A stretch of 38,460 nt of DNA from a virus. The notes below the pieces were generated by a model, which had not been told where the DNA came from, made no database searches, and was given only the letters and a program-made list of their open reading frames with translations. Shown here in pieces: positions 3,333 through 33,116 of the stretch. The stretch lies in IMG/VR virus record IMGVR_UViG_3300024432_000008. One strand, 5' to 3'. The position numbers and the translations under genes are program-made. How positions within the stretch are numbered: position 1 is the stretch's first letter; the number at the start of each line of letters is the position of its first letter.

Positions 3333-3333
3333 T

Positions 3334-3552
3334 ATGAATGAGAGATTCGGAATGATAACGTTAAAAGATTCCCCTGCACAAGATAGGGGAGGTTGTGATC
3401 AATGTAGATGGGCAGGTGATATTAGTAGTTGCCAAATAAAACGAGAAGGTAGTTTGGAAGAAGGTTATTATGATGTGTATTTATGTCCTGTATGCTTAGA
3501 TACTTCCCTTACTGATTATTGGTATTCCAATGAAGAGATTTTGTTTTGGTAA
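3334..3552 (+). CDS. small zinc-ribbon-like protein, paralog A
   Basis: ATG at 3334 lies 8 nt after GAGGG. Contains CDQCRW...SC...YLCPVCL...DYWYSNEE. Paralogous to 3574..3837. Confidence 0.6.
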   Translation: MNERFGMITLKDSPAQDRGGCDQCRWAGDISSCQIKREGSLEEGYYDVYLCPVCLDTSLTDYWYSNEEILFW

Positions 3553-3573
3553 ATTCAAGGGTATTGGACTGTA

Positions 3574-3837
3574 TTGCAAGATGGGAAAATAAGTTCCACT
3601 AAATTAGTAATAAATGAAATGGGGTTTGTAATAGGAATGATAGAATTAAAATACTTACCTGGATTTGATAAAGGTGATTGTGATCAATGTGGATGGGTAG
3701 GGGAACTTAATAGTTGTCGAATGGAACAAGAAGGTGATTTTGAAAAAGATTCTCATAATTTTTATAATGTGTATAAATGTCCATCATGTTTAGCGGCTCT
3801 TAGTAATTATTGGTATTCTAATAAAGAGGATATATGA
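3574..3837 (+). CDS. small zinc-ribbon-like protein, paralog B (start may be ATG 3619)
   Basis: Contains CDQCGW...SC...YKCPSCL...NYWYSNKED. Alignment with paralog A favours the MGFVIGMIELKY start at 3619. Confidence 0.6.
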   Translation: MQDGKISSTKLVINEMGFVIGMIELKYLPGFDKGDCDQCGWVGELNSCRMEQEGDFEKDSHNFYNVYKCPSCLAALSNYWYSNKEDI

Positions 3838-3838
3838 T

Positions 3839-4234
3839 ATGAACATCAAGAATCTTGAAAAACAAGCTATAGTTATTAATGAGAATATAGGTATAATTAA
3901 AAAATTCCTATTAAGTGAATTATATTTGATAGAAAAAATAATAATAATGATAGCTGTAGCAATGATAATAATGATACTAGGTTTTGTCTCAGAAAATCAA
4001 GAATCATTTGTAATATTGTTGTCATTATCATTATTCAGTTCATTATATTATTTTTCGTTGAAAGCAAGTCACCGGAAATGTGCTAATACTATTCGAAAAT
4101 GTGACAGTTTACTATACGACATCATGATATATATAACTGTTGAATTGCATAATAATGAAGTTGAAATATTGTCAGAGGAAAGATTAGTTGAATTTCAAGA
4201 TCGGGTAGATGAATTGCAATGGGGTGTTAAATAA
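3839..4234 (+). CDS. membrane protein, two predicted TM segments
   Basis: Hydrophobic runs IIIMIAVAMIIMILGFV and FVILLSLSLFSSLYYFSL. Start overlaps the upstream stop (TGATATG). Confidence 0.55.
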   Translation: MNIKNLEKQAIVINENIGIIKKFLLSELYLIEKIIIMIAVAMIIMILGFVSENQESFVILLSLSLFSSLYYFSLKASHRKCANTIRKCDSLLYDIMIYITVELHNNEVEILSEERLVEFQDRVDELQWGVK

Positions 4235-4494
4235 TGGATATTCAAACATTTAAAAACAAAGTTAAAGACATTAGTAAGGATATAAACGCAAATCGACAAT
4301 TAATGTTAATTAGAGTGCATCAACAAGTTAAAATACTTGAAAAGCAGGAATCTTTGTTAAGTGATCTTGATAATTTCGCGACAATTTTATTGATTTTCGA
4401 AAGTGAAGATGTATCAATACTGGAAAAACAATTGCTAAATCTCCAAGCACGTGCTGACAATATACATGACTTAGTAATAAAGGATAATGAATAA
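4234..4494 (+). CDS. hypothetical protein
   Basis: 86-aa ORF. Start and stop overlap on both sides (ATAATG junctions), suggesting translational coupling. Confidence 0.5.
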   Translation: MDIQTFKNKVKDISKDINANRQLMLIRVHQQVKILEKQESLLSDLDNFATILLIFESEDVSILEKQLLNLQARADNIHDLVIKDNE

Positions 4495-4832
4495 TGAACA
4501 TTAAGACTGGGGATGAGATATTTTTAACGGAATGGGTATACATAGGTTTTTCTCAAAGGTTGTCTTGGAAAAAAGCAGTTGTAACTAGAATAACGAAAAC
4601 ATTAATTTTTGTTGAGGATATTAAATTTCGAAAATGTAGTCTGGGAGTAGATTTATTTGAAATAAATGATGAGACTTTGTGCAGAGCAACAGAAGATAAC
4701 AGCCTTTTAAGGCGTAAAGAACTCCAAATTAAATTTAGTGTTTATAAATGGCAACATATCGAGTTAGAAACACTTGAAGACATTAACAATATTTTACTAT
4801 TGGCAGAAATCACAACAAGGAACAATAAATGA
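4494..4832 (+). CDS. hypothetical protein
   Basis: 112-aa ORF, coupled to its neighbours by overlapping stop and start codons. Confidence 0.5.
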   Translation: MNIKTGDEIFLTEWVYIGFSQRLSWKKAVVTRITKTLIFVEDIKFRKCSLGVDLFEINDETLCRATEDNSLLRRKELQIKFSVYKWQHIELETLEDINNILLLAEITTRNNK

Positions 4833-5293
4833 ATCATCAAGATGATGGGTCCAAAATTGTTCAAGAGCACAAATTCAATTTCATTTGTCGCATTGAGTTG
4901 GAACTTAGGTCTGATGGTTCGATCCTTAAAGAAGAACCATGTGGAGGAAATACACAGGTTATGCATAGATATGGTAAAGGGCCATTTTCAAGATTCAAAA
5001 TTCCTACTGATATTCGTGATGAAGGCGTGCATATATTAATGAGCAATAACACCATCAAATATATAGGCGGAAGTACAAATTTTGCACGGAGTTATAACTC
5101 TGGATTTGGGAGAATAGCTATTAGATCAGCCCCGTTCATAGGTGGTAACGAAACGTATTGCCGAATCAATACATTAACATTAAATCAGATAGAATCGGGT
5201 TCAATTGTTGAGTTATGGTTTAAAAAAACCGCACAGTATCACAGGGTGAAATCTCGATTAATTCACAGGCTAAATCCTGGATGGAATCGTTAA
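4829..5293 (+). CDS. GIY-YIG-like nuclease domain protein (tentative)
   Basis: GVHILMSNNTIKYIGGSTNFARS resembles the GIY-(~10 aa)-YIG-...-R motif. The C-terminal LIHRLNPGWN resembles the LI..l.P.WN ending of the family. Confidence 0.4.
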   Translation: MNHQDDGSKIVQEHKFNFICRIELELRSDGSILKEEPCGGNTQVMHRYGKGPFSRFKIPTDIRDEGVHILMSNNTIKYIGGSTNFARSYNSGFGRIAIRSAPFIGGNETYCRINTLTLNQIESGSIVELWFKKTAQYHRVKSRLIHRLNPGWNR

Positions 5294-6690
5294 GTATGTG
5301 CAATCCCCCATACTGTAAACCTTCCAGATGTTATATTGCCGCTACTGAATAATACTTGAACTCTATCTAGTGTAATCGCAGCCAATCTTATTCCTCGAAA
5401 AGGTCCACCATGGTAAGCGGCACTAGCATTTTTATGGATAAAATCCCCTGTTATGGTTGGACCTTCTGAATCTGAGGGGATTATATCCCCTGTACCACCT
5501 ATTCCGTCAGCTGTAGTTACATTTAATGCAATTCCTATGTTTGAGGTGCCTGCATTTACCGAAGCTGCATATGCAGCTGAGGCTACTGTTACATTTGTGC
5601 TATGGTATGCGTAATCGGTGGCCCCACTGTCAATTCCTCCAGCATCGCCAACTCTCATCTGAAATGAAACATTATTTGATGAGGGTATCATTTTGACCCA
5701 TGCAAAAGCAAACCTATCGTATATAGTAGTATCAAGACCTGTTATTGTAAGTGAAGGGCTAGCAGAAGCTACCTTTGAATCTATTACTACCCATGAACCT
5801 TTAGCGCCATCAGCTTTGTTGATCGTACCAACGACAACATTTGCAGCAACTGATTGAAAATCGATAATGTCACCGGGAGCAGTAGTAAAATTGCTACCCC
5901 CATTATTCAAAGTTATACCCGCTCCTACTGTGATAGCTAATACACCGTCAAATTGAAGTTGAAAACGTCTATTTGTAGCAACGGTTATAGTTGCAAAACC
6001 CGTCGTTCCGGTCACATTGAAATAGTCACCATCAATACCTAAGATTAGAGGTGACGCTGAGGCCAGATCCCCACCTTTTGTTGAACCCACATAATTGTCG
6101 TTAGGATCGAGGAAGCCACCAAGCTGTGGTGATGTGTCATCGACAAGATTAATGGCCACAGGGGTGCCATTTGCCCTAGTGATGGCAACAATTCGAACAG
6201 TATTCGCAGCTGTAGAAAAACATTGGAATTGATCACCCGGACTGGTTGTGAAATTTGCACCACCTGGAATCACAATTGATGCACCATGGGTAACAACTAG
6301 TGCCCCATCGAATTGCAAAATGAAAAACCTATTTGCAGCAACTGTCATAACTGCAAACCCAGTCGTACCAGTCACATCAAAATAGTCACCATCAATACCT
6401 AAGACAAGAGGTGACGCTGAGGCCAGATCCCCACCTTTGTCCATACCGATAAAATTATCATTAGGATCCAGAAATCCTCCGAGTTGGGGTGATGTATCAT
6501 CAACAACGGCAGTTAGAGTACCGGGTGGTCCTTGCGGTCCTACATCACCTTTCAGTGTATTTCCACCTGTGGTAGATCCATCACCAACAAAAGCCTCATC
6601 TAAATCTTCATCATAAATATGTTCACCTTCTATCGGTGTATATCCAGTACGTTCTGCTGTAGTCACTAAAGGAATTGTATATAGTGCCAT
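5290..6690 (-). CDS. tail fibre protein with a short collagen-like stretch and a tandemly duplicated ~120-aa domain
   Basis: ATG at 6690 lies 10 nt after GGAGG. Fibre-type N-terminus ALYTIPLVTTAERTGYTPIEGEHIYDEDLDEAFVGDGSTTGG, then GPQGPPG. Two copies of VDDTSPQLGGFLDPNDN...GGDLASASPL.LGIDGDYF.VTGTTGF. Confidence 0.75.
   Translation of the reverse strand: MALYTIPLVTTAERTGYTPIEGEHIYDEDLDEAFVGDGSTTGGNTLKGDVGPQGPPGTLTAVVDDTSPQLGGFLDPNDNFIGMDKGGDLASASPLVLGIDGDYFDVTGTTGFAVMTVAANRFFILQFDGALVVTHGASIVIPGGANFTTSPGDQFQCFSTAANTVRIVAITRANGTPVAINLVDDTSPQLGGFLDPNDNYVGSTKGGDLASASPLILGIDGDYFNVTGTTGFATITVATNRRFQLQFDGVLAITVGAGITLNNGGSNFTTAPGDIIDFQSVAANVVVGTINKADGAKGSWVVIDSKVASASPSLTITGLDTTIYDRFAFAWVKMIPSSNNVSFQMRVGDAGGIDSGATDYAYHSTNVTVASAAYAASVNAGTSNIGIALNVTTADGIGGTGDIIPSDSEGPTITGDFIHKNASAAYHGGPFRGIRLAAITLDRVQVLFSSGNITSGRFTVWGIAHT
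5796..6506 (-). repeat. 360-bp (120-aa) tandem domain duplication inside the tail fibre gene
   Basis: AAATAGTCACCATCAATACCTAAGA occurs at 6020..6044 and 6380..6404. GAGGTGACGCTGAGGCCAGATCCCCACCTTT occurs at 6048..6078 and 6408..6438. The flanks are diverged. Confidence 0.85.
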
Positions 6691-7720: not shown

Positions 7721-10009
7721 TCAAGAAAATCCTTCACTAAATCCAGTCGAATGCGCACGTGTTAAAGGGTCCAATATATCGAATGTATAGTACCGATCAT
7801 CATAATTGACACCTGTTACCCTGACATACTGTTTTTCAGTCGGATCTATTGTCAGCGGTAAGATTCTTTGCCCGTTAAGCCTTGCTTCAGGACCGAATGA
7901 AAATTCTGTCTTCAAAGCACTATTTGCAGTATATATAGTTTCTTCTGGAACTTCAAGCAGAACAACGTGTGTATTATCTACACCTGCAATAACTGGGATT
8001 GACTGTATATCTCCGTCACGTTTTTTTAAAATGATAAAATGATCATCACCTTGAATGAATTCAACTGCTTGTGATAATTCAATTTCTAAGCCATCAACAG
8101 ATCTTATGTAGCCATCGAAAGTAGCTACACGAGTACCTTTTACTACTGAAATCATCCTAGATGGGCGTATAAATCTCCCTTCTGCTGTCACAGTAAAATC
8201 AACAGCTATCCTGCCGTATCGAAGCCTTTGAAATTCACGCCAAGTACGCCATTGTGCTTGTCTAAAATTAGCAATACCAGGAATTTCATATATTTTAGGG
8301 TTAGTTGCGCTACGGTCAGCAGGAAAAAAAATCAATTCTTGTGTATTTGTCTCTCGATTTTGCCATTTGAAAACAACCCCATCATTTTCTGTTGAATTAT
8401 TAAATCTTCGTGACCATATTTCAACACCGGGTTTTTTAGATCTGTGAGTGAAAACCATTTCCGGCCCAAGTTGTGGCTGTTCAAATTCAACAAATAAAAC
8501 TTTTGCTACGCGATAAGGTACAGAGAACACAGCGTTTGTGATAGTATAAAATATTTCTTGTGGGGTGATCCGAGTGCTATCAAATGTATAATTAAATTCT
8601 CCCGCTTGTGCCTCACCAAAATATGTTTCTATATCTTCTTGAGTTTGCAACAGCTGATCTAAATCCAGTTCTGATACATCTCGACCGCCTATTTTTGGAT
8701 CGAGTGCCATTCTAATTAACGTCTGCATGGCTTGGGTGTTAGACGTAAGAGTTCCGGCAAATTCACCACTACCGATATATTTATCGACTTTTTCTGTAGC
8801 TAAACAAGATAAGACAGGGACTGTAATTGATGCGCTTTGCTCATTTCTTATTCTCCGGGTATGAATAGTCGTAACATCACCAAAATCAGTTAGTGAAACA
8901 TCTTGTGAGCCATATAGATCTCTCCATTGAATTTCATCGACCACAGTCCCTTCAAATTCAAAATCTTTCAACGTATCTCGTTTAACTCTAACTCTCACAT
9001 ATGATCTTGAACCCATCTCGATTTCAACAGTTGTTCCTTTTTGATCTGTATCATTACCAGATACAGCACCTGAAATTGATGATATTGATCCAACGGGGTC
9101 TCTATCATCATTAAGAAATTGCCATTGAGTAGTAAAATCAACAATAGCTGAAGATTTTACTACACCATCATCTTTAAACATCCCTCTAGGGGCAATTGTG
9201 TTAACCCAAAAACGATCAACTTTTAAAGTTGAAAATGAGAACCAACTTGTAAAACCTCCGGCGGGTGTTTCGTTGCTTGCCCTGAGTATTAAACCTCCAA
9301 CTTCAACAGAACGACGAACTGTAGATATTAAATCATTGATTACTGGACCTATCTGTATTTCTGGGGAATCCCCACTATTCGGACTAGTGAATGGCCCATA
9401 AACAGCAGCACTAGCATCTGTTATATCAGATACCAATGTATCACCATCTTTAATTTCTTCGATTACTAATTCTTTTCGTCCGACGCAATAATAGGCAATT
9501 TCTTCTTCTACATTATTAAGAAATTTACGATAATTTCCCATAATAATATCAGGTATAGAATTTACTTGGCCACCAATATCAGGAATGCGTTCATTAATCC
9601 TTACAAAATTTGATCTATTAGTAAGTGCATTATTAGGTGATTCTTGCTGTCTATTTACATTCTTAAGAGCTACTGGCTTGGGAATATTCGGATTGCCTAT
9701 TCCACCGGGTGTATCAGGCAATGATGAAATTACTACAACGGCTGATACTATTGCTACTACAGCACTGATTATTAATAACGCTGTTGCACTAATACCGGGA
9801 GTTTCAACGACAGAGAATTTCCCCTCATGAGCTAAAATCTTAACAAAATTATTTGTAATATCGTTATCAGATGATGGGTTAAATCCTTCATGTACACTGA
9901 AAGGTGTTTTCCTTGCTCTAAATTGTTTTAAACAAAAGTGAGCGGGACTTTTATCTTGAAATTCTTCTACTCTCCCATCAAGATAATAATATTTTATATT
10001 TACCGCCAA
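7721..10009 (-). CDS. host-specificity / central tail tip protein (lambda J-like) with an N-terminal lambda I-like segment
   Basis: 762 aa, directly after the NlpC/P60-like gene as in the lambda K-I-J order. The N-terminal ~100 aa end in VETPG followed by the hydrophobic run ISATALLIISAVVAIVSAVVVISSL, as in tail assembly protein I. Confidence 0.7.
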   Translation of the reverse strand: MAVNIKYYYLDGRVEEFQDKSPAHFCLKQFRARKTPFSVHEGFNPSSDNDITNNFVKILAHEGKFSVVETPGISATALLIISAVVAIVSAVVVISSLPDTPGGIGNPNIPKPVALKNVNRQQESPNNALTNRSNFVRINERIPDIGGQVNSIPDIIMGNYRKFLNNVEEEIAYYCVGRKELVIEEIKDGDTLVSDITDASAAVYGPFTSPNSGDSPEIQIGPVINDLISTVRRSVEVGGLILRASNETPAGGFTSWFSFSTLKVDRFWVNTIAPRGMFKDDGVVKSSAIVDFTTQWQFLNDDRDPVGSISSISGAVSGNDTDQKGTTVEIEMGSRSYVRVRVKRDTLKDFEFEGTVVDEIQWRDLYGSQDVSLTDFGDVTTIHTRRIRNEQSASITVPVLSCLATEKVDKYIGSGEFAGTLTSNTQAMQTLIRMALDPKIGGRDVSELDLDQLLQTQEDIETYFGEAQAGEFNYTFDSTRITPQEIFYTITNAVFSVPYRVAKVLFVEFEQPQLGPEMVFTHRSKKPGVEIWSRRFNNSTENDGVVFKWQNRETNTQELIFFPADRSATNPKIYEIPGIANFRQAQWRTWREFQRLRYGRIAVDFTVTAEGRFIRPSRMISVVKGTRVATFDGYIRSVDGLEIELSQAVEFIQGDDHFIILKKRDGDIQSIPVIAGVDNTHVVLLEVPEETIYTANSALKTEFSFGPEARLNGQRILPLTIDPTEKQYVRVTGVNYDDRYYTFDILDPLTRAHSTGFSEGFS

Positions 10010-15736: not shown

Positions 15737-16153
15737 CTAAGGTACCCTATTAATATAACTAGACCAATCCACACTCAAATCTAAAATAGCCCAACCCTTA
15801 TTTATTCGCAATGGACCACGACCGATATTACTAATTCTTACACAGGTGTCATTCCACTCAAAATTAACACCAGGTTTAAAAATCAAAGCTATTTCATCAG
15901 CTTTCCTGTTCAAAACAGCACTACCACTATCTTGTGGATAATACACACTTATTTGATAAATCCCCTCATGCAAAAATGTTCCTTCTGGACCTAGTTCTGA
16001 TTGTATAGGTTGAATAGGTAAAATTGTACCAGCAAGAAACGGAGTTGAAATATCAGGCTCACCTGCCGTATTTTCAAGAAAAACCGGCAATCCACCAAAA
16101 TCAGACATTTTCAACGGTACATCAAGAGCCTTTTGTATTTCCTCAAAACTCAT
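15737..16153 (-). CDS. tail terminator-like protein (start revised to MSFEEIQ...)
   Basis: The track ORF starts at GTG 16195. ATG 16153 overlaps the stop of the upstream small ORF (TAATG). GIYQISVYYPQDSGSAVLNRKADEIALIFKPG resembles gpU/DUF4128-type terminators. Confidence 0.5.
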   Translation of the reverse strand: MSFEEIQKALDVPLKMSDFGGLPVFLENTAGEPDISTPFLAGTILPIQPIQSELGPEGTFLHEGIYQISVYYPQDSGSAVLNRKADEIALIFKPGVNFEWNDTCVRISNIGRGPLRINKGWAILDLSVDWSSYINRVP

Positions 16154-16308
16154 TATCTTTCGATCATCTTCGTAATCATATGATGTATCCACCACGCTAC
16201 TAGTCCAACAAAAATCACCAATGGTACAAATTCAACTGGTATATTTTCAGTATGATTACGATGAAGATAAAAAAGGAATCCCGTAAGGGCAAAAAACATG
16301 AAGATCAT
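16153..16308 (-). CDS. 51-aa two-TM membrane protein (not in ORF track)
   Basis: Reads MIFMFFALTGFLFYLHRNHTENIPVEFVPLVIFVGLVAWWIHHMITKMIER. The start overlaps the upstream stop (ATGA) and the stop overlaps the downstream start (TAATG). Confidence 0.4.
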   Translation of the reverse strand: MIFMFFALTGFLFYLHRNHTENIPVEFVPLVIFVGLVAWWIHHMITKMIER

Positions 16309-16649
16309 GGGGCGGCTACTTCAGAACCTAATACCTGCTCTGACTTAAATACTATCATTTCTAAAAACTCAAATGAAAATTGATGTCTATAAATAGATGG
16401 CATCTCAAATATACACCCTTTGAAATTAATCACCTCTTTTACTCCAGACATGATAATAATACTGAACGGGCGAGGACCACTCATCATCTTATACATTACA
16501 TCAATAATCGGTGAATTATGCTTCAAATTAAATGTTAAAATTCTCACCTTCTCACCAATTACTACATAATCACCTACAATGAACTCCTCCGTCGATAACC
16601 CCTCAACTATCAACGTGTGCTGACCCTCACCCTGCATGCTTATGTGCAT
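16305..16649 (-). CDS. hypothetical protein (start moved to MHISMQGEG...)
   Basis: The track start at 16784 lies inside a terminator-like hairpin, and the first 45 codons cover a G+C-rich helix-rich stretch. ATG 16649 is the first start downstream of these. Confidence 0.4.
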   Translation of the reverse strand: MHISMQGEGQHTLIVEGLSTEEFIVGDYVVIGEKVRILTFNLKHNSPIIDVMYKMMSGPRPFSIIIMSGVKEVINFKGCIFEMPSIYRHQFSFEFLEMIVFKSEQVLGSEVAAP

Positions 16650-16745
16650 TGTAATCCCTCGCTTGTGCGAGAACCGCAAAGAGTCCAGACCCTGCGATCC
16701 TCGCATCCTCCATGTAAACCCATAATACATAGAGGATACTACCTG

Positions 16746-16785
16746 AAAATAGAGTTGCTGCTGTTCGTACACGTGCAGCAGCAAC
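16746..16785 (-). terminator. intrinsic terminator candidate downstream of the autotransporter gene
   Basis: Perfect 10-bp stem GTTGCTGCTG (16754..16763) / CAGCAGCAAC (16776..16785) with a 12-nt loop, followed on the minus strand by TCTATTTT. A second perfect 9-bp hairpin lies just upstream (16791..16799 / 16824..16832). Confidence 0.5.
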
Positions 16786-16981
16786 CTACACCACTATGTA
16801 CAGAAGGAGTTCCGATCCATGGCACATAGTGGTATCCCTATTTTAGAAATAATACCAGCGAACATCTCAAATTTTACTATCTATACCGGTCAAAGCAAAT
16901 TATTACTGACTTCGTATTTCGATCACAATCATAACATTTTCTTATCCTCTCTATCATCCAATTTTGGCAATATATATCTGC

Positions 16982-19774
16982 TTAGAAATTCATTCTAAAT
17001 TGCGCACTTGCTGCATGAGAAACAAAATCCGACCGAGTGCTCAAATCATAATCAAAACTGAGAACGTAGACACCATCATCAGTTGAATAATCAATACCAG
17101 CTCCGATGATTCCACCTAACGCAGCTGGCTCCGGTCCACTCGTTGGGGCGACAGTAGTTCCTGTGCTCACCCAAGAAGAATTCACCTGTGCCTTCTCTTG
17201 CAAAACATCCCAATCAGCAATTAAACGGAGCTTCGGCGACAAAGTACCACCATCAAAAACCAACTTCTTGTTCAGTGTAACACCAGCTTTGATACCAAAC
17301 AAGTCCATACTTTCAGGACTAACATTCAAAGCTCCGAACCCAGTTTCGGTGTACTCATCTGGATTTATATGCGAATATGCCAAAGTCACCTGAGGAGTGA
17401 TCGCATACAATTCCATATCAATCGGCATCCCAGCTCCAACACTAGCTGAATACGTGCTGGTGTCATACTCGCCCGTCACCGGAACACCAAATCCAGTACG
17501 CTCTGTAGCACTAGATGAATGGGCATAAGCCATAGAGCCGTTTATGAAAAAATCATTCATATACAAGGTTCCGTACAAAGTACCTTGTATCTGGTCGGTG
17601 TCTGTTATCGATCTTGCTGTACTCTTCCCTTCAACATCAATATCAGCAAAACTTAGGGCTATTCCAACCATGAAATCGCTACTAACAATCTGGTCAATTC
17701 CTATCACGATACCATGAGCATCCGCATCATATCCAGCAACTCCATCGCGCATGTCCATCTCAGAATCAGATCCAAATGCTTTCAGCCATACACCCATGTT
17801 GAGAGAGGGATTGCCGGCATTGACACCAGAATGTTTCGACAATCCGTATTTCCCAGAACTGGCAACAATGGTGTTCTGATGGCTGGTTATCGTATTATTA
17901 ACGACTGTTACCCCAGACATAGCTCCAGATAACGCAACACCAACATCAGGGTTTATCTTCTCATTAAAATGTTTGATGGACATTTTACCGTTATTAACGG
18001 CTTCTATGGCATCAACTACTTTCAGATTGATGCTTATTGCGTTATTGATTTTTGCAGTAGCTGATTCCAAAGCTTTACTGGCTGCTTTGATAGCCTTGTC
18101 ATCACTATTTTTTATAGCCTCAATCAAATCAGCCTCAGCAGCTTCCATAGCCTCAATAGCCGTCTCAACACCAGCCATCTCACTTACAAAAGTTTTAGCA
18201 GCATCAAATTCAGCTTGAGTCAATACGTTGATGATACCTGCTTTTTTCAAAGCTTTTGCATCAGCCATCATCTCATCTGTTACTTCAGTCCGAGCTGCTG
18301 TGACAATGGCATCAAGAACATTTTGATCTGTTGCTACGTCCCGAGCTGCTGTGACAATGGCGGCATCGATCTCTTCTTGAGTGATTGAGCCATCATTGAC
18401 TATCTGCTGATTTTCGTAAACTTCAACGACTTTCTGTGCTTGTGCCTCGGTGACCAAAATACTTTTTATATAAGCCTCAGCCCAATCAGTATCATTATTA
18501 TCAATCAGAGCCGAAGCTTCGATTGCATTCTCTTCATTAATATTAACTCCCGTAACGAGGTTTTCATTAACTGTTAATAATTTCAGAATATTTGCACCAT
18601 CACCGTTACCAAAATCATTGACGGAGACATTGTCCTCAACAGTAACTACAACAATCTCATTAATAAAATTGTCAGCATCCTCAAACTGTTTAACAGTTAC
18701 CACGTCACGTTTAGCGGTATTTGCAGCAGCATCAATCTGAATCTGGTTTATTGCACCAGCAAAAACCAAATCCGAAGCAGCATCAATATCAACTTGACTT
18801 ATCACATCAGCAGAAATCAAAGCCTCAGCCTTGGCAATATCGGCCAGTGTGACGTCTACGATGGGCCCAGCATCCCGTAGTGCTTCAGCAGCTGTAATGC
18901 GGTCAGAGGTGATCTCTTCGCCGTTGTTGCCATCTGGATCATCGTAGAATGCTATCTTGGTGTTTGCTTTGTGAGCTGCTTTAATGGCCTCGACCTGTGC
19001 CAATGTAAGATGCACAGCTGGACTATCCTCATACAAAGCACCTTCGGCGTAAGCCTCACTATTAAAACTCCGCTTCAGATTACCTACAACTTCTGCAGTG
19101 ACAGGAACATCTACAGAATCAATCCCAAGAATCGCATCAATATTCTCATCAGGAATCGCATCAATACCCTCATCTGTTGACGCCACAGTCTCAACAGCCA
19201 ACAATTCAGTCGCTGCATAATCGAAACCTGTTCCAAGGTCCACCAGATAAGAGGCCGCATCAACTTGAATCTGAGTAACTCCCTCAACATCAGCTTGAGT
19301 AAAGATTCTCTCACTACCAAGAACATCAACACTTGTCTTGAAATTAGACAAGACTTCTCGGAGTCGCTCAACTTCCGTAGTGGCAAGATCGACACTGGAG
19401 AAGGTAGCGGAACTGGTCCAATCATCCCTGGTGTCCAAAGACGTGTTGTACGCAGCAAGAGCATTTTTATACTCAGAAACTGCTGCATTGATGGAATCAT
19501 CAACTGTATCGATTGTGATACCATCAACAGCACTTACGTACGCATCAAACGTTATCTCTGTCTTACCTTCAATAACACTCATCTCGTGGTTAGCTGCAAT
19601 CGCCTTATCAAAAGCAATATCGGCCGTATTCAAGTGCTCGTTAACGGTGCTAAATTGAGCAGCAAAAGCAGCCGAAACATCACTGAAATCATCTCCAGCT
19701 ATAGCAACAGTCACACCAGAACTCATAGACAACACACACGCGAGAAATAAAACCGACTTTTTCATAGTATTCAT
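16982..19774 (-). CDS. type Va autotransporter: signal peptide, ~640-aa acidic passenger, C-terminal beta-barrel translocator
   Basis: MNTMKKSVLFLACVLSMSSGVTVAIA/GDD is a Sec signal. The C-terminal ~280 aa (NMGVWLKAFGSDSEMD...GIVIGIDQ...) show alternating beta-strand patterns. The protein ends SAQFRMNF, an outer-membrane-protein beta-signal with terminal Phe. Confidence 0.85.
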   Translation of the reverse strand: MNTMKKSVLFLACVLSMSSGVTVAIAGDDFSDVSAAFAAQFSTVNEHLNTADIAFDKAIAANHEMSVIEGKTEITFDAYVSAVDGITIDTVDDSINAAVSEYKNALAAYNTSLDTRDDWTSSATFSSVDLATTEVERLREVLSNFKTSVDVLGSERIFTQADVEGVTQIQVDAASYLVDLGTGFDYAATELLAVETVASTDEGIDAIPDENIDAILGIDSVDVPVTAEVVGNLKRSFNSEAYAEGALYEDSPAVHLTLAQVEAIKAAHKANTKIAFYDDPDGNNGEEITSDRITAAEALRDAGPIVDVTLADIAKAEALISADVISQVDIDAASDLVFAGAINQIQIDAAANTAKRDVVTVKQFEDADNFINEIVVVTVEDNVSVNDFGNGDGANILKLLTVNENLVTGVNINEENAIEASALIDNNDTDWAEAYIKSILVTEAQAQKVVEVYENQQIVNDGSITQEEIDAAIVTAARDVATDQNVLDAIVTAARTEVTDEMMADAKALKKAGIINVLTQAEFDAAKTFVSEMAGVETAIEAMEAAEADLIEAIKNSDDKAIKAASKALESATAKINNAISINLKVVDAIEAVNNGKMSIKHFNEKINPDVGVALSGAMSGVTVVNNTITSHQNTIVASSGKYGLSKHSGVNAGNPSLNMGVWLKAFGSDSEMDMRDGVAGYDADAHGIVIGIDQIVSSDFMVGIALSFADIDVEGKSTARSITDTDQIQGTLYGTLYMNDFFINGSMAYAHSSSATERTGFGVPVTGEYDTSTYSASVGAGMPIDMELYAITPQVTLAYSHINPDEYTETGFGALNVSPESMDLFGIKAGVTLNKKLVFDGGTLSPKLRLIADWDVLQEKAQVNSSWVSTGTTVAPTSGPEPAALGGIIGAGIDYSTDDGVYVLSFDYDLSTRSDFVSHAASAQFRMNF

Positions 19775-19829
19775 ATAGTTACAATCTCTCATTTTCACTA
19801 GTAAAATTAACAACATCATGACTGTTGCT

Positions 19830-19858
19830 ATAATACCATATATGTATCTGAGATGCAA
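19830..19858 (-). promoter_or_regulatory. sigma70-like promoter for the autotransporter gene
   Basis: The minus strand reads TTGCAT (19858..19853), 17-nt spacer, TATTAT (19835..19830). It lies in the 95-bp spacer between the gp10-like stop (19870) and ATG 19774. Confidence 0.5.
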
Positions 19859-19869
19859 CATGATTAAAC

Positions 19870-20322
19870 TCACAACCTATTCAACCTAGCAGCATTCTCA
19901 TTGAAAATCCTGGAAAAGTTCCTTTCGGTAATTCTTACAACTCCTTGCGGAGCCTGTCGGGAAAAACCACCTACCGTCTTCGGGCCATCCCGATACCCAC
20001 CAAATTCTATGGTCTCAGCATATGGAAGATTATTTGTTAACCAAAAAATACGTGCATTAGCTGCTTGATTAACTGTTTGCTCAATCTCCCGATTTACTTG
20101 ATTCAATGGCCTAATAGCAGTTGTAACTTGTGTGGATGGAATTCCTATCGTCACAAACCAATTACCTCTAAACCTACCACCAGTAGCTGGTGATTCTTGT
20201 ACTGGGGACGCACGTACTACTTGTCCAAAAATTTTAATAACAGTAATCCTGTAAGTCTCATCAGACAAATTAGTGAAATCAATTCTAAAATCTCTGATTT
20301 GACTTGCAAAACTAGCCATCAA
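19870..20322 (-). CDS. HK97 gp10-family head-tail joining / tail completion protein
   Basis: VRASPV...TGGRFRGNWFV and NNLPYAETIEFGGY are typical of the family. Confidence 0.7.
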   Translation of the reverse strand: MMASFASQIRDFRIDFTNLSDETYRITVIKIFGQVVRASPVQESPATGGRFRGNWFVTIGIPSTQVTTAIRPLNQVNREIEQTVNQAANARIFWLTNNLPYAETIEFGGYRDGPKTVGGFSRQAPQGVVRITERNFSRIFNENAARLNRL

Positions 20323-20615
20323 GGTAACCGACTTCGATTGCTCGGTCTCTTTTTTAATCTATCCCATGACCTATTCCTGACTCCAAAATTGTCCCCATAA
20401 GAACTAGGGTTGCGTGTATCAATCTTCCCTGTGTAAGGATTAACATTACCTTGAGTACTCCAATTATTATTAATAGTACTATCCGAAGAAGATCGATAAT
20501 GTCCCGGCACATAGGTACCATTCGATTTCATGTAACCATTCACCCAGGTATCAGCATGAGCAAAACTAGAAAACATTGTCAATGCCGACAATAAGAACAT
20601 CCCAATAAATTTCAT
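20319..20615 (-). CDS. small exported protein (signal peptide plus Asn/Ser/Gly-rich mature part)
   Basis: MKFIGMFLLSALTMFSSFAHA/DT signal. The mature part is WVNGYMKSNGTYVPGHYRSSSDSTINNNWSTQGNVNPYTGK. Confidence 0.65.
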   Translation of the reverse strand: MKFIGMFLLSALTMFSSFAHADTWVNGYMKSNGTYVPGHYRSSSDSTINNNWSTQGNVNPYTGKIDTRNPSSYGDNFGVRNRSWDRLKKRPSNRSRLP

Positions 20616-29054: not shown

Positions 29055-29561
29055 CTATTCACCAATTGTCATCTTGACATCTTTAACAGGCGGAGCTACA
29101 ACGTAGCTAATGCTCAAAGATGGTGCCGGTGCTGCATCGTCATGCTTCCCCTTCACCAACTCCGCCTCTGGCTTCCACTCATCAGGTCTTCTATTATACA
29201 ACCATAGCTTAATAGCTGCAACATTCGGAGCTACCTTTTTTTTAGTTCTAATAATCCTAACATTGTCATATTCATCAACATTTTTAGTTCTAGTCCTCTC
29301 AGTATAACCTGTTGCTACCTGATACAACGAACGGACTACATTTGAATCATATTCATCTTTAGTAAAATCAAGTGCATCTGAAAAATCTGGATACATAGTC
29401 TTCCAAAGATAAAGCGAACTTACATTAATTTCGTAGAATTTCGCAACTTCTTCATGGGTATAGCCCATGATGATCAAATTGCGTGTCTGTTCAATCATCG
29501 ACTTCTTATAGAGAGTCGGTCTACCTTTCTTCTTGTGCTTCCTTCTCAATTTTGGGCTCAT
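29055..29561 (-). CDS. terS: terminase small subunit (HTH)
   Basis: Basic N-terminus KLRRKHKKKGRPT followed by an HTH-like GYTHEEVAKFYEINVSSLYLW. First gene of the late arm, upstream of TerL. Confidence 0.7.
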   Translation of the reverse strand: MSPKLRRKHKKKGRPTLYKKSMIEQTRNLIIMGYTHEEVAKFYEINVSSLYLWKTMYPDFSDALDFTKDEYDSNVVRSLYQVATGYTERTRTKNVDEYDNVRIIRTKKKVAPNVAAIKLWLYNRRPDEWKPEAELVKGKHDDAAPAPSLSISYVVAPPVKDVKMTIGE

Positions 29562-29573
29562 TATCTTAACCTC

Positions 29574-29591
29574 TAATATGAATTCATATTA
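29574..29591. promoter_or_regulatory. 18-bp perfect palindrome TAATATGAATTCATATTA between the late promoter candidate and the TerS RBS
   Basis: Perfect dyad centred on GAATTC. Lies between the -10 element (29604..29609) and the RBS GAGGT (29572..29568). Confidence 0.5.
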
Positions 29592-29603
29592 TATTTAGAG
29601 ATC

Positions 29604-29632
29604 AATATAAATCAAACAAAATAGAATGTAAA
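29604..29632 (-). promoter_or_regulatory. sigma70-like late-arm promoter candidate
   Basis: The minus strand reads TTTACA (29632..29627), 17-nt spacer, TATATT (29609..29604). Confidence 0.4.
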
Positions 29633-29718
29633 GTTTAATCACATTGGATATATACAATAGGTATGTTGCGAGGTGGCTATCAGAATTCCTGAATGTCTAA
29701 CATCCGTTAACACCTAAA

Positions 29719-29767
29719 CATTAGCACTCCTTAACATTTAGACAATTAAGCATTAGCACTCCTTAAC
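29719..29767 (+). repeat. 17-bp exact direct repeat CATTAGCACTCCTTAAC x2, 32-bp period
   Basis: Copies at 29719..29735 and 29751..29767. Confidence 0.9.
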
Positions 29768-29804
29768 GTTGATTCCACAGCATCAAGGTTGATCTCATAG
29801 CATC
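29768..29804 (+). repeat. 17-bp direct repeat GTTGATnnCAnAGCATC x2, 20-bp period
   Basis: Copies at 29768..29784 and 29788..29804, 14 of 17 positions identical. Confidence 0.75.
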
Positions 29805-29838
29805 GAAACAGGTTAAAAACTCAAGAACGGCATAGGTT

Positions 29839-29882
29839 GCCACAGGTTTGCCACAGGTTTGCCACAGGTTTGCCACAGGTTT
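29839..29882 (+). repeat. 4 head-to-tail 11-bp iterons GCCACAGGTTT
   Basis: Exact copies at 29839, 29850, 29861 and 29872. Confidence 0.95.
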
Positions 29883-30154
29883 TGTGAAAATCTAAAATCC
29901 CAAAATTCCCACAAAAATCAATGACTTGGACGCTTCTTTTTTTAAATGCCACAGGTGCCACAGGTTTTTTTTGTACCTTTTCTTATAAAAAAAGACAAAA
30001 AAATAAAAGATAGTAAGTTATAGTAAATTATAATAAGTAGTAGATGTATATATAGGAAAGGTAGGAAAAACCTGTGGCACCTGTGGCATTGATATTTTCT
30101 TCAAGTTTAAGATGTTGTAATTATTGGAATTTTGTCGCCACAGGTTTGGAAATC

Positions 30155-30198
30155 AAACCTGTGGCAAACCTGTGGCAAACCTGTGGCAAACCTGTGGC
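30155..30198 (-). repeat. 4 head-to-tail 11-bp iterons in inverted orientation (AAACCTGTGGC)
   Basis: Exact copies at 30155, 30166, 30177 and 30188. Confidence 0.95.
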
Positions 30199-30247
30199 AG
30201 TCGATTTTGGCTACAATCAAGATACATATGTGAAAGAATTCTTTACG

Positions 30248-30276
30248 TTGACATAAACCTTCATTCAAGGTAAGAT
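30248..30276 (+). promoter_or_regulatory. sigma70 consensus-like early promoter
   Basis: TTGACA (30248..30253), 17-nt spacer, TAAGAT (30271..30276). The RBS AGAGG precedes ATG 30313. Confidence 0.55.
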
Positions 30277-30312
30277 GGTGTCAATTTAATTCACCAAACT
30301 TTAGAGGTACTT

Positions 30313-30501
30313 ATGAACATTTTAGATTCACAGATAACCAGTAGGGTAAACAAGGAAATATTGAGTAAATTCAGACACATAGCGTCGGAATTGGACAAGA
30401 GACCGCAGCAACTACTCAGAGAATTAATTGCAGCGGTCGTAGACGATAGGATCAAGATAGCTCCGACAAAACATAAATATCACAAGAACATATATTCTTG
30501 A
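30313..30501 (+). CDS. small DNA-binding protein, ribbon-helix-helix-like (tentative)
   Basis: 62 aa, first gene after the early promoter and origin. TSRVNKEILSKFRHIASELDKRPQQLLRELIAAVV fits a beta-strand/helix/helix pattern. Confidence 0.45.
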   Translation: MNILDSQITSRVNKEILSKFRHIASELDKRPQQLLRELIAAVVDDRIKIAPTKHKYHKNIYS

Positions 30502-30563
30502 TAACATGTTGCAATCGTTGAGATTTAGGCGTAATAATTCCAACATAATCAAGGTTGAAACCA

Positions 30564-32843
30564 ATGCAGACGATGGCCCAGATTCGAGCAGCGGGGTTGG
30601 TATGTTTTCCCTGTAATGCAGATAAGAGTCCACGAGTGAAAAATTGGAAGGATTCAAGTACTTACATAGGGAGAGCAGATACGCAGATCGGAGGGTTAGC
30701 GGTACCGCCAAATGTGGTAATCATTGATTTAGATTTGCATAAGGGTATTACGCGAGCGGATGCAGCCAAGATACTAGGATGCACGATACCTTGGGACGAG
30801 ACGTTGATACAGCGCACGAAGAATGGAGGTGAGCATCATGCGTTTAGGATTAATTTTGAGACATCACAAAGATCTGGAGATCCTATAAAAGGATTTGACA
30901 CCAGGGTTGGAGGTAAGGGGTACATATGTTTTGGGCAAGGCTATACCCCTGATGGGGAAGGCATTTTGAGGTTAGCTGATGTTGCTTCGTTGCCTGAGTT
31001 GCCAGTGGAGGCACGTGCGGTACTGGAGGATAAGAAGGTTGGACCTATCAAGAAGTTTAGCGGTCCAGATATTGAGATTGACGACAAGAACCTGATTAGC
31101 GCGTTGAAGAGCATAGATCCGCATGATGGTCGTACCACCTGGATACAGGTTGGAATGGGCTTACAGGCGGAATTTGGGGACACTAAGAGTGCATTTGAGT
31201 TATTTGATAGGTGGAGTCGAGGTGATTTGTGGGAGACGGTAGGGATTCCGAAGAATTACAAGGAGTCTACGCAACACCAGCAGTGGCAGTCGTTCTCATC
31301 TACTGGGAACACGAAGATAGGAACGATATATCATCTGGCGAAGAATGCAGGATGGAAGTGGGTGAAAGAACCGCTGAAGATTGAGAAAATTTCAGAAGGG
31401 CTTGGTCCTTCGGTTCCGTTGCCACGATCAAAGTTTGATTTTGGTATTGAGATTATCCATGTGGATAAGATTCCGATAAGTGAGATACCTCCGTGTCCTG
31501 ATGGTTCTGATGGTAAGCCCCGGACATATTCACAGGATGCGGCGGCATGTTTGATATTGGGAGGTAAGTATCGCGGTCGAATTATGGACATTAACAATAG
31601 TATAAGATGGTGGTCGGGTCGGGAATGGGAGCCGATGAGTGAGCAGAATTTAAGATATTTCATAATAAAGTCGTTACCACCTGGAAAATACCGTAATCGT
31701 GCTTATTATTCTGGAGTTTATGAGATATTATTAGTCAATTTGCCACCTTCACGGGAGGGTAGGTATGATAAGCATGTATATTTTAGGAATGGATATGTAG
31801 ATTTATCAAAAAACGAATTCAAACCACATAGGATGGAGAATTTAAATCTAGGTACTCTTGCGGTAGATTATGATGAACAGTCGAACCTCAACACGCCTGA
31901 GTGGGAGAAGTTTTTAGTATCGATATTTGGATCATTGACTGATGAGAGGGTGGTATTGTTACAGGAGGTATTTGGATGGTTGATGATCATACATAATTTA
32001 GGTATTGAGAAGTATATCGCGCTAACAGGGGTAACCAGGGCAGGTAAGGGGGTGGTATTAAGGATTTTGATGGCGATACTTGGTAGGATTTTTTGTGGAC
32101 CTATCAATTTTAGTTTGTTGGGAACGGTACAGGGGCATTCTACATTGTGGAGGTATAATGTAGTTTGTGATTCGGAGGCGAAGATGCCTAAGAGAGATGA
32201 ACGTATGCAGGCGTTAGATACGTTGCAGAAGGTGACATCGAATGAGGTGTTGAGTTCGCGGCGATATTATGAAAATGACAATTTGGAAGGTATGGTAAAT
32301 ACCAAGTTAATTTTGGCGTGCAATAGATTCCCTGTGTTCTCAGATGACAGTGGAGCATCTGCGAGCCGCGTTGTACCGATAGTGTTTGATAGAAGTTTTT
32401 TAGGTAAGGAAGATACGCATTTGGTAGAGAGGTTGAAGAAGGAGATAGTCGGAATTTCGCATTGGTCACTTGCAGGGTTGCGTAGATTGTTGTTGAACGG
32501 TGGGAAGTTTACGCTACCGGAATCGACTATGCAAGCGGTAGATGATTTACTAATGTCAACAAAGATATTGAGTGGTTATGTTGAGGATGAAGTTGTATTT
32601 CATCCAGATGCTATGGTTTTTATTGCAGATTTATATAAAGTGCATGGGGTTCATTGTGAAAAGACGGGTGCTAAGAAAATGAGTCAGATTGTATTCAGTA
32701 AAGCGTTGAAAGATACGTTACTTGGTCGTGGTCTTAAATGGACAACAATTCGTATTGGTAAAATCAAAAAGCGTGGGGTTGTTGGAATTAGATTGAGGAA
32801 TCCAATAGGGATGGATATACCGGCATCACCAATACCTATGTAG
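30564..32843 (+). CDS. bifunctional AEP primase-polymerase / SF3 (D5/P4-like) helicase
   Basis: AEP motifs VVIIDLDLH (DxD), GGEHHAF (sxH) and GFDTRVGGKGYI. Walker A GVTRAGKGV, Walker B VVCDSE. ATG 30564 lies 9 nt after AAGG (the track start is TTG 30555). Confidence 0.85.
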   Translation: MQTMAQIRAAGLVCFPCNADKSPRVKNWKDSSTYIGRADTQIGGLAVPPNVVIIDLDLHKGITRADAAKILGCTIPWDETLIQRTKNGGEHHAFRINFETSQRSGDPIKGFDTRVGGKGYICFGQGYTPDGEGILRLADVASLPELPVEARAVLEDKKVGPIKKFSGPDIEIDDKNLISALKSIDPHDGRTTWIQVGMGLQAEFGDTKSAFELFDRWSRGDLWETVGIPKNYKESTQHQQWQSFSSTGNTKIGTIYHLAKNAGWKWVKEPLKIEKISEGLGPSVPLPRSKFDFGIEIIHVDKIPISEIPPCPDGSDGKPRTYSQDAAACLILGGKYRGRIMDINNSIRWWSGREWEPMSEQNLRYFIIKSLPPGKYRNRAYYSGVYEILLVNLPPSREGRYDKHVYFRNGYVDLSKNEFKPHRMENLNLGTLAVDYDEQSNLNTPEWEKFLVSIFGSLTDERVVLLQEVFGWLMIIHNLGIEKYIALTGVTRAGKGVVLRILMAILGRIFCGPINFSLLGTVQGHSTLWRYNVVCDSEAKMPKRDERMQALDTLQKVTSNEVLSSRRYYENDNLEGMVNTKLILACNRFPVFSDDSGASASRVVPIVFDRSFLGKEDTHLVERLKKEIVGISHWSLAGLRRLLLNGGKFTLPESTMQAVDDLLMSTKILSGYVEDEVVFHPDAMVFIADLYKVHGVHCEKTGAKKMSQIVFSKALKDTLLGRGLKWTTIRIGKIKKRGVVGIRLRNPIGMDIPASPIPM

Positions 32844-32850
32844 ATGCCGG
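32820..32850. terminator. hairpin between convergent genes (weak bidirectional terminator candidate)
   Basis: CCGGCATC (32820..32827) pairs with GATGCCGG (32843..32850) across a 15-nt loop that spans the primase stop. There is no clear U-tract. Confidence 0.3.
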
Positions 32851-32858
32851 TATAAATA

Positions 32859-33116
32859 TCAATTCAGAATATCTGTAATGGGTGTATTTAGAATTTTCTT
32901 GTTATTAGTCTTTTTGGCGAATGTAATAACAAGTTCCCGAATCTTCATAATTCCGCCAAAGTGATGTTTAACAAGTGATTTACTACAGTTTGCCTCTCTA
33001 GCTATATCAATAAGAGTCATTCTAAACAATCCTTTTTCATGGACACAGCGAAGAATACAAGCGAAAAGCAAATCACGGCGTTCGTGTTGAGACATATACT
33101 TATTTTCTGTAAACAT
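32859..33116 (-). CDS. small TetR-type HTH-only DNA-binding protein
   Basis: RRDLLFACILRCVHEKGLFRMTLIDIAREANCSKSLVKHHFGG matches the TetR N-terminal HTH pattern. ATG 33116 is preceded by AGAGGA. Confidence 0.55.
   Translation of the reverse strand: MFTENKYMSQHERRDLLFACILRCVHEKGLFRMTLIDIAREANCSKSLVKHHFGGIMKIRELVITFAKKTNNKKILNTPITDILN

Follow-up and report, generated by a model that had tools for sequence, protein, structure and literature searches.

A predicted type Va autotransporter carried as an exchangeable cassette by a lineage of apparently virulent deep-sea siphoviruses

Classical (type Va) autotransporters such as EstA, NalP, EspP, Hbp, BrkA, AIDA-I and AaaA combine a signal peptide, a passenger, a linker helix, a 12-strand barrel and a terminal aromatic beta-signal, and the known ones are encoded on bacterial chromosomes or plasmids. 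Here we analyze a gene of this same architecture that is encoded by a phage. It lies on the minus strand of a viral DNA of 38,460 nucleotides (IMG/VR record IMGVR_UViG_3300024432_000008; this whole stretch is referred to as the window), where a single long open reading frame (ORF; 16982..19873) yields a product of 930 amino acids (aa) from the ATG at 19774, that is, from 16982-19774. Unlike the passengers of known type Va proteins, that of the window shows no sign of a beta-helix or of an autochaperone, protease or lipase domain, and the barrel is at most about 40% identical to any cellular protein found.

How does such a gene compare with what phages are known to direct at the host envelope? 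Envelope-targeted phage morons encode mostly small lipoproteins or 8-strand barrels and have mostly been studied in temperate coliphages. Lom of phage lambda is an 8-strand barrel of the Ail/Lom type and Bor is a lipoprotein; both were characterized as expressed from repressed prophages. Ag43 (flu), located on the cryptic prophage CP4-44 of E. coli K-12, has a repeat-rich passenger, allelic diversity and regulated expression. Like Ag43, the window autotransporter lies on a phage-type element, has a repeat-rich passenger and is diverse in its alleles. Ag43, however, has a beta-helical passenger and belongs to a defective integrative chromosomal element, whereas the window is an apparently complete, replication-competent phage with an unrelated passenger. 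Its repeat unit, (V/I)TQxx(I/V)DAAxxLVxxG, sets it apart from Ag43, AIDA-I and TibA and their ~19-aa AIDA-type repeats, and no passenger repeat family of Pfam matches it. Like the morons (lambda Lom and Bor, and the HK97 gp15 concept), the locus is extra DNA between coupled virion genes (PMC3594210), with promoter-like and terminator-like elements. Its GC content is above that of its neighbors, but some other genes of the window are equally GC-rich. Unlike Lom and Bor, it encodes a 930-aa autotransporter in a phage without recognizable lysogeny genes and includes a conserved structured RNA. We propose a purely functional analogy to Llp of T5 and Cor of T1, phi80 and N15, genes of virulent (T5, T1) or temperate siphoviruses whose products enter the host outer membrane during infection and alter the cell's susceptibility to phages (PMC9586334). 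Llp and Cor are lipoproteins of ~60-80 aa that jam FhuA from the periplasmic side, and llp adjoins the receptor-binding gene. In contrast, the window protein has neither a lipobox nor a cysteine, carries an AIA/G site of the signal-peptidase-I type, is predicted to be surface-displayed and is uncoupled from the tail-tip protein; no homology, mechanism or ancestry is shared.

The product begins with MNTMKKSVLFLACVLSMSSGVTVAIA, followed by GDD. Its predicted Sec signal peptide (aa 1-26; 19697..19774, minus strand) comprises the n-region MNTMKK, the hydrophobic core SVLFLACVLSMSSGVTV and an A-I-A/G cleavage motif. It was recognized by manual criteria, namely a basic n-region with KK and a 17-residue hydrophobic core with a mean hydropathy of up to 2.2, and its VAxA motif (V23, A24, A26) is invariant across five homologs. 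A first-pass annotation, made from the letters of the sequence, had proposed this signal peptide, and hydropathy and the AxA site bear it out, with the correction that the product begins MNTMKKS, MKKS lying three residues further in.

The C-terminal part of the protein is predicted to be an autotransporter beta-barrel of 12 strands (aa 660-930; 16985..17797, minus strand). In profile searches aa 662-904 are assigned to Pfam family PF03797 (E=2.1e-42; 146 bits, cut-off 26), and aa 650-930 to TIGR01414 (E=2.8e-27; 95.8 bits, cut-off 16). An AlphaFold2 model of aa 541-930, computed from an alignment with 10 more diverse family members, contains 12 long strands and is of moderate confidence (pTM 0.68, barrel blocks mostly at pLDDT 70-89). 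When this model was compared with the PDB by Foldseek, all top 18 matches were translocators of classical autotransporters, among them AaaA, EstA, Hbp, NalP, EspP, BrkA and AIDA-I (E 1.7e-13 to 4e-9; TM-score on target at most 0.84). Directly before the barrel, residues 73-99 of the model form a predicted linker helix (aa 613-639; 17858..17938, minus strand), in a region that aligns with the translocator units of solved autotransporters. The protein ends in ...SAQFRMNF, of which F926, R927, N929 and F930 are invariant among homologs. PDB sequence searches with single sequences and profiles of both barrel and passenger returned nothing meaningful, and a PHROG search with the 930-aa protein matched no family. 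A beta-helical passenger with an autochaperone region is typical of type Va without being defining; no Pfam match to it was obtained at E<=0.1. Members of the EstA type lack this region as well. The barrel, the helical linker and the beta-signal had all been read correctly from the letters. With every defining feature that can be tested in silico present, the product is predicted to be a bona fide classical (type Va) autotransporter.

The passenger (aa 27-612; 17939..19696, minus strand) is acidic, poor in proline, free of cysteine and built in part from about eight degenerate units of ~20 aa. The strong acidity noted at first pass holds: aa 27-650 (624 aa) contain 15.7% A, 10.3% V, 9.6% D, 8.5% I and 7.7% E, no Cys, and carry a net charge of -69. 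All five of the Q-x-x-[IVF]-D-A-A motifs listed there are likewise present, and the degenerate unit of ~20 aa can be written (G)x(V/I)T(Q)xx(I/V)DAAxxLVxxG. In relatives with a second type of allele (type B) the tandem units are regular, ~20-21 aa long and follow GVxEEVTQxxIDxAQxIVDxG. With a repeat HMM built on the type-B units (seed sequences P0005, P0008 and P0010), the window protein yields ~8 units and type-B alleles yield 14-18 (16-18 in the three seeds), whereas two control autotransporters give no unit better than E=1.8. At the nucleotide level, the exact 21-nt repeat with a 51-nt period (18290-18310 and 18341-18361) is longer than any exact repeat in 200 shuffles, where the maximum was 15 nt. 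It is held in a 51-nt (17-aa) tandem duplication (18258..18359, minus strand), and a second 51-nt tandem duplication, with copies 73-76% identical, lies at 18725..18826 on the same strand.

Searched against 1.84 billion representative proteins, the passenger gave five matches, all of them members of this family, and it has no match in Pfam, PHROG, PADLOC or the PDB sequences; by these searches it is an orphan. Full-length AlphaFold2 modeling with a five-sequence alignment gave low-confidence, mainly helical structure at a mean pLDDT of 33, unusable for the passenger. Of the two structures that the first-pass annotation had hoped for, the 12-strand barrel was thus obtained and the passenger fold was not. 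A marginal local similarity between aa 39-89 (19519-19671) and aa 585-644 of the tail-tip protein (7721-10009), 33% over 60 aa, scored 33 bits against a maximum of 28.5 in 300 shuffles. It was weaker in the homolog P0002 (23.5 bits, E=0.17), with nothing comparable in P0003 or P0004, and we rejected it, as probable chance, as a module shared with phage tail proteins.

Is the contig that carries this gene a genuine phage genome? PHROG profiles identify, all on the minus strand, TerS, TerL, portal, a MuF-like head morphogenesis protein, the major capsid protein (MCP), adaptor Ad1, head closure Hc1, tube, chaperone, tape measure and tail tip. They also identify the two genes that flank the insertion, Neck1/tail completion (19870-20322, minus strand) and the tail terminator (15737-16195, minus strand). 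Homologs of the latter align from residue 15 of its ORF, so its true start is probably near 16153. Encoded elsewhere in the genome are a DNA polymerase, a primase, an SNF2 helicase and a DUF2800 nuclease, and searches of the window for tRNAs and Rfam families gave no match. Judged from this gene content, the window is a real siphovirus genome. An exact 27-nt overlap of its ends (1-27 and 38434-38460) consists of a hexamer repeat, (GCACCT)n; the point of closure probably falls within a tandem repeat, which makes the overlap weak evidence that the genome is complete.

Homologs of the autotransporter, 45-60% identical, sit on contigs of ~36-39 kb. The slot between Neck1 and the tail terminator is occupied by an autotransporter in L002/L003, L004, L006, L007, L008/L009, L010/L011, L013 and L014, which represent at least seven independent assemblies (SRA-derived, NCBI, ENA, IMG/VR and JGI), and the ORF is intact in all of them. 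Because at least seven independent assemblies show the same arrangement, the contig is not chimeric, which settles a check that the first-pass annotation had asked for. Could the gene still be an artefact, either host DNA joined in assembly or a decaying, non-functional hitch-hiker? Its GC content of 0.432, against 0.374 for the window and 0.34-0.40 for its neighbors, would fit that idea, but the MCP gene (0.44), g473 (0.43) and the primase region are equally GC-rich, and the dN/dS of the barrel (0.08-0.14) argues against decay. There is also no close cellular relative: the best, from a metagenome-assembled genome (MAG) of Magnetococcales, is 40% identical over 28% of the query. Pattern scans for the barrel motif in 185,579 species-representative genomes and in IMG/VR found no close relative either, so that the suggested recent capture from a host finds no backing. 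We give the artefact explanation practically no credence.

A seamless empty site occurs in the close relative L012, whose tube protein is 80% identical to that of the window. There, the genes for Neck1 and the tail terminator share an ATGA overlap, and a TAATG overlap joins Hc1 to Neck1. Compared with L012, the window contains two insertions, the ORF 20319-20615 and a 3.7-kb block made up of the autotransporter cassette and two small ORFs, g114 and g51; L012 has neither the block nor the small secreted protein encoded by the former. The claim that the cassette was inserted into the head-tail joining run is thereby supported, with the amendment that g114 and g51 also lie between the cassette and the tail terminator. 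In L001, which derives from a cold-seep metagenome of the South China Sea (PMC9357000), the cassette occupies another genome position. This allele, of the same type (type A) as that of the window, has a barrel 85% identical in nucleotides, with both the upstream motif and the 3' RNA element described below. It follows a different virion/lysis module (amidase, internal virion protein) and precedes early genes that match window 2200-3319.

Allele and backbone do not travel together. L007 resembles the window in its tail tip (97%) and tube (93%), but its barrel is only 59% identical and its passenger barely aligns; in L002 the values are 88% for the tail tip, 68% for Neck1 and 86% for the barrel. 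A third allele type (type C), with barrels 44-51% identical and a passenger of V-rich repeats, is found in L013 and L014. The type-C autotransporters are 1220-1260 aa long, with V-rich repeats of 17-24 aa. At the same hotspot, immediately upstream of the type-C gene, L014 (843-3212) and L013 (62-2431) encode a 789-aa protein without a signal peptide that contains ~42-aa beta-propeller-like repeats with weak YncE/PQQ-propeller matches. Comparison of the loci indicates that allele type is incongruent with the phage backbone and decoupled from the tail-tip protein.

Between type-A alleles, amino-acid identity falls and dN/dS rises from the barrel (82-88%; 0.08-0.14) through the linker region (69-77%; 0.17-0.38) to the passenger (24-54%; 0.44-0.72); as dS is 0.6-1.6, near saturation, these ratios are indicative only. 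They point to strong purifying selection on the barrel and to a passenger that evolves far faster, with whole alleles apparently swapped between phage backbones. Taken together, the comparisons define the cassette as a predicted mobile accessory unit, consisting of regulatory motif, leader, ORF and a two-hairpin 3' RNA/terminator, that occupies a fixed Neck1/tail-terminator hotspot in what appears to be a deep-sea siphovirus lineage. A scan of JGI metagenomes yielded only L005 138-1322 (Ga0209977_10009648), a 394-aa barrel-only homolog without a signal peptide. L005 and P0009 (406 aa) are both barrel-only proteins that lack a signal peptide and start with a short helical segment. The barrels of L005 and the window share 50-51% identity, and the context of L005 does not look phage-like.

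The non-coding parts of the cassette are conserved as well. Upstream of the gene lies the motif TG-TTGCAT-N17-TATTAT (19830..19860, minus strand), read from the sequence and conserved in eight loci. TTGCAT-N17-TATTAT itself, at 19858-19830, has a TG before its -10-like hexamer, and its spacer contains a CACA..TGTG-like palindrome. The order TGTTGC(A/G)N, palindrome, TGGTAT is kept in all eight type-A and type-B loci, L001 included, and the motif is unique in the window, where 0.03 chance matches are expected. The first-pass annotation had recognized the motif and called it a near-consensus promoter, a description that does not hold: the -35 hexamer agrees with the sigma-70 consensus at 3/6 positions, a consensus scan made no call, and the -10-like hexamer varies among homologs (TATTAT, TATCAG, TATCAC) and is not kept as a sigma-70 box. 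We therefore regard the motif as a putative conserved regulatory element, promoter-like and possibly operator-like, but mediocre as a sigma-70 promoter. Between the motif and the start codon, alignments of homologous loci define a conserved leader (5' UTR; 19775..19829, minus strand). Window 19845-19754 and L004 share 93.5% nucleotide identity, although their passengers have no nucleotide similarity.

Downstream, the cassette ends in a two-hairpin 3' RNA element of 94 nt (16744..16838, minus strand), defined by RNAalifold and a covariance model. The stem of hairpin 1 spans 13 bp and is capped by a conserved loop, UGGAUCGGAACUCCUUC, which contains the anti-Shine-Dalgarno-like CUCCUU. Hairpin 2, with a 12-bp stem, is terminator-like and followed by CUCUAUUUU; it has 8 covarying pairs and is kept 3' of the gene in eight loci. 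The hairpin and T-tract that the first-pass annotation had placed after the gene exist, then, as the second of two conserved hairpins, and lie at ~16795-16745, ~190-240 nt past the stop codon. Over the eight loci RNAalifold gives -40.2 kcal/mol, with compensatory double changes in 16/29 pairs. Pairing is retained in 98.7% of cells, compared to 84.6% in shuffles, of which 0/500 attain this figure, and to 33-52% after sliding of the 3' partners. From the frequent G-U pairs, the RNA belongs to the autotransporter-sense strand. An opposite-strand ORF at 16819-16998 (GAAGGAG-N9-ATG) was considered and rejected; its ATG is not kept in L002, and the G-U pairs fix the strand.

Matches to the covariance model occur exclusively 3' of autotransporter genes. 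Single copies lie in L001 (10865-10960), L002 (12909-13003), L006 (13742-13836), L007 (13063-13155) and L010 (8618-8710), and tandem double copies in L004 (13572-13664 and 13667-13762) and L008 (7491-7583 and 7591-7688). The 15-mer loop motif has 79 exact matches in IMG/VR, and 0/79 pass the model; no Rfam family matches the element. Hairpin 2 is predicted to be the cassette's own terminator, and the two-hairpin element as a whole appears to be previously undescribed. The covariation-supported, terminator-like hairpin at 16745-16795 thus interrupts the virion operon midway, ahead of the genes for tail terminator, tube and tape measure. With a terminator-like hairpin in front of them, expression of these tail genes would need read-through, antitermination or a restart promoter; the only candidate for the last is a weak TTTTCA-N16-TATTAT (16749-16722).

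Two further predicted hairpins, with loops UUAUGGGUU and GGGUCUGGACUCUUU, form a putative leader of g114 at approximately 16662..16743 (minus strand), ahead of its ribosome-binding site. The minimum-free-energy fold of the 346-nt spacer has z = -5.8. The hairpin block is kept in the window, L002, L007 and L010, its start is also found after the terminator in L006, and covariation within it was judged by eye only. The loop GGGUCUGGACUCUUU of the second leader hairpin resembles the hairpin 1 loop of the 3' element, both sharing GGNUCNGGA(A)CUCYUU. This shared motif hints at a common trans-acting factor.

Three small ORFs accompany the cassette. The product of g114 (16305..16649, minus strand; 114 aa) has homologs 51-70% identical in L002, L006, L007 and L010, is absent from L012, L004 and L008, and has no Pfam, NCBIfam, PHROG or PADLOC match. 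That of g51 (16153..16308, minus strand; 51 aa) has two hydrophobic, presumably transmembrane, segments and homologs 64-65% identical in L004, L006 and L007. The overlaps of g51 with g114 (ATGA) and with the tail terminator (TAATG) represent translational coupling, and in size and topology g51 is holin-like. The third ORF (20319..20615, minus strand; phrog_29674) encodes a protein of 98 aa with a signal peptide between Hc1 and Neck1, its start and stop codons overlapping both neighbors. This protein belongs to a family of 57 small, unnamed metagenomic hypothetical proteins and has no Pfam or NCBIfam match. It is 59% identical over 49 aa (E=1e-20) to the N-terminus of the type-B passenger P0008, and its module WVxGYxKxNGTxVxGHxRS..NWSTxGNVNPxTG is the N-terminal 'head' of type-B passengers. 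Elsewhere in the window, a 221-aa ORF (35809-36474, plus strand) is marked by seven perfect copies of PPASIA and by a duplication of PTAASAMQ. In 1-5300 and 29500-38460 the only candidate regulators are a TetR-like helix-turn-helix (HTH) ORF (32859-33143, minus strand) and a ribbon-helix-helix (RHH)-like ORF (30313-30501, plus strand).

What kind of phage is this? With the DNA polymerases of Sashavirus-like phages and of Yersinia phage fEV-1, both virulent siphoviruses, its own shares 43-45% identity. Phages of that group typically bring along a DNA polymerase, a primase and a helicase for replication, as this one does. No ORF of the size of an integrase, recombinase, partition protein or protelomerase is left unassigned in the window, and the portal protein has no relative in the 185,579 species-representative genomes. 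The nearest cultured phages share at most 53% MCP identity and have diverse hosts.

These data bear on an explanation in which the autotransporter is a factor of the lysogenic-conversion type. The phage would pass through an unrecognized temperate, plasmid-like or carrier state, during which expression from the gene's own promoter benefits the host by conferring resistance to serum, grazers or stress, or an aptitude for colonization, like lambda Lom and Bor. The layout of the cassette is that of a classic moron, a concept defined for expression from prophages (PMC3594210), the upstream motif contains an operator-like palindrome, and the window encodes the small TetR-like and RHH-like regulators along with many unassigned ORFs. 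Set against this are the lack of any ORF in the size range of an integrase, recombinase, partition protein or protelomerase, the phage-encoded DNA polymerase, primase and helicase, with a polymerase like that of Sashavirus-like phages and fEV-1, and the absence of both the portal and the autotransporter family from the species-representative genomes. We consider such a role improbable.

More improbable still is an accessory role in lysis, in which massive late insertion of barrels would destabilize the outer membrane and replace a spanin. Searches of Pfam, PHROGs and NCBIfam for endolysin, holin and spanin families gave no match among the ORFs tested, including those of window 1-5300 and 29500-38460, and the gene, lying in the late operon, would also receive upstream read-through. 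The first-pass annotation had drawn on the missing spanin, an argument without weight: as the tested ORFs matched no lysis family at all, the non-match to spanins is uninformative. Damage to a membrane, moreover, does not call for a 624-aa, hypervariable, allele-swapped passenger, L012 does without the gene despite the same virion module, and the cassette has a conserved regulatory motif of its own.

What, then, might the autotransporter do? From the biology of type Va proteins we infer the following course. During infection the host machinery would make the protein and the Sec system would export it; BAM would then insert the barrel into the outer membrane, and the passenger would be threaded to the cell surface. 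Such Sec- and BAM-dependent display implies that the host is a diderm. The displayed passenger would act through its bulk properties, as a long, strongly negative, non-enzymatic coat by which the infected cell's surface is remodeled or shielded. Competing phages would adsorb less, and newly made progeny of the phage itself would be lost less often to cells already infected or to the debris of lysis. Surface shielding or remodeling of this kind, a form of 'lytic conversion' or superinfection exclusion, is the role toward which we tentatively lean, while holding it short of probable. We favor it because the passenger has no cysteine, no enzyme or known adhesin domain, an extreme negative charge and a variable number of repeats (8 to 18), because its evolution is relaxed and rapid, and because alleles are exchanged independently of the tail tip. 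There is precedent for exclusion by proteins that act at the outer membrane in virulent siphoviruses, namely T5 Llp and T1 Cor (PMC9586334), and morons in tail operons can confer exclusion (PMC3594210).

The same variable passenger would also suit an adhesin, a role doubtful in itself and yet nearly as likely as the shield. In this case the passenger would bind host cells, particles, animal or biofilm substrates, or itself. Infected cells would thereby remain attached to susceptible neighbors or recruit them, and progeny would be set free close to new hosts. In type-B alleles the N-terminal module would serve as a binding head and the repeats as a stalk. The architecture of head, repeat stalk and barrel fits such a function, as does the occurrence of the type-B N-terminal module as a stand-alone secreted protein, and the rapid divergence and allele swapping of the passenger resemble those of receptor-binding and antigenic proteins. 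AIDA-I, Ag43, TibA and pertactin, all with non-enzymatic repeat passengers, are adhesins. Cold seeps are rich in surfaces and invertebrate-associated communities, and this is the habitat of L001. On the other hand, the passenger has no Pfam match to an adhesin family, beta-helix or autochaperone domain, and we know of no precedent for a virulent phage that encodes a cell-cell adhesin. Self-association could not recruit uninfected cells, which carry no such protein, and the strong negative charge disfavors non-specific sticking to negatively charged cells.

Several further considerations count against the shield. The function is pure inference, and the passenger fold could not be predicted. Known exclusion proteins of this sort are lipoproteins of small size, directed at one specific receptor and encoded beside the receptor-binding gene; the window protein is neither of this kind nor so placed. 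Most characterized non-enzymatic autotransporter passengers are adhesins. A 930-aa protein that depends on Sec and BAM would be a costly shield within a single lytic cycle. The passenger's dN/dS of 0.5-0.7, with dS close to saturation, would equally fit diversifying selection at an interface for specific binding. Finally, with the sigma-70 assignment of the upstream motif uncertain, early or independent expression is not established.

A more elaborate proposal takes in both the protein and the RNA. In these probably virulent deep-sea phages, type V secretion would display an allele-specific, fast-exchanged 'virocell surface tag' that either captures uninfected hosts or specific substrates, and so promotes transmission, or excludes rivals in an allele-specific manner. 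The private RNA, with its CUCCUU loop, would act in cis or in trans as a new regulator that couples expression of the autotransporter to read-through into the tail genes. We think it rather unlikely that all of this applies.

To what extent have such proteins been seen before? A 'prophage-encoded autotransporter' is mentioned in passing in the literature, and 'autotransporter' annotations in lytic phages are typically weak, passenger-like matches in tail fibers (PMC8778798). Three BFVD entries from uncultured Caudovirales, annotated 'Autotransporter beta-domain containing protein' (A0A6J5KUW0, A0A6J5R861 and A0A6J5L9T3), share the barrel fold (Foldseek E 2e-10 to 1.5e-7), yet are only 11-14% identical to the window protein, and their annotations are automatic ones on uncultured contigs. 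BFVD also contains a single short and incomplete entry named 'outer membrane autotransporter barrel', as well as numerous further barrels of outer-membrane proteins, and 50,697 deposited phage records contain four weak barrel matches, all on unannotated fragments of less than 10 kb. Phage contigs that carry an autotransporter barrel are thus already in the databases. The first-pass annotation had called a surface protein of this kind unusual in such a phage; with three full-length entries and a partial one in BFVD, the rarity had been overstated. In full-text literature we found no study of a phage-encoded autotransporter, nor of the context, conservation or function of the BFVD entries. New are the lineage-wide hotspot, the exchange of allelic cassettes, the orphan repeat passenger, the link by fusion to a secreted module and the covarying 3' RNA, each as judged from the comparisons above.

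These results indicate that a full type Va substrate is a conserved accessory of an apparently virulent lineage of marine phages, in which it occurs as several exchangeable alleles. As a compact, self-contained unit of promoter-like motif, autotransporter and putative terminator, the cassette may possibly be of use for surface display. Should the autotransporter reach the cell surface during infection, it would mean that lytic phages are able to refashion the exterior of the cells they infect by means of large secreted proteins. This would have consequences for competition between phages, for how cells of deep-sea communities aggregate and associate with particles, and for the prediction of hosts, which would be diderms with Sec and BAM.

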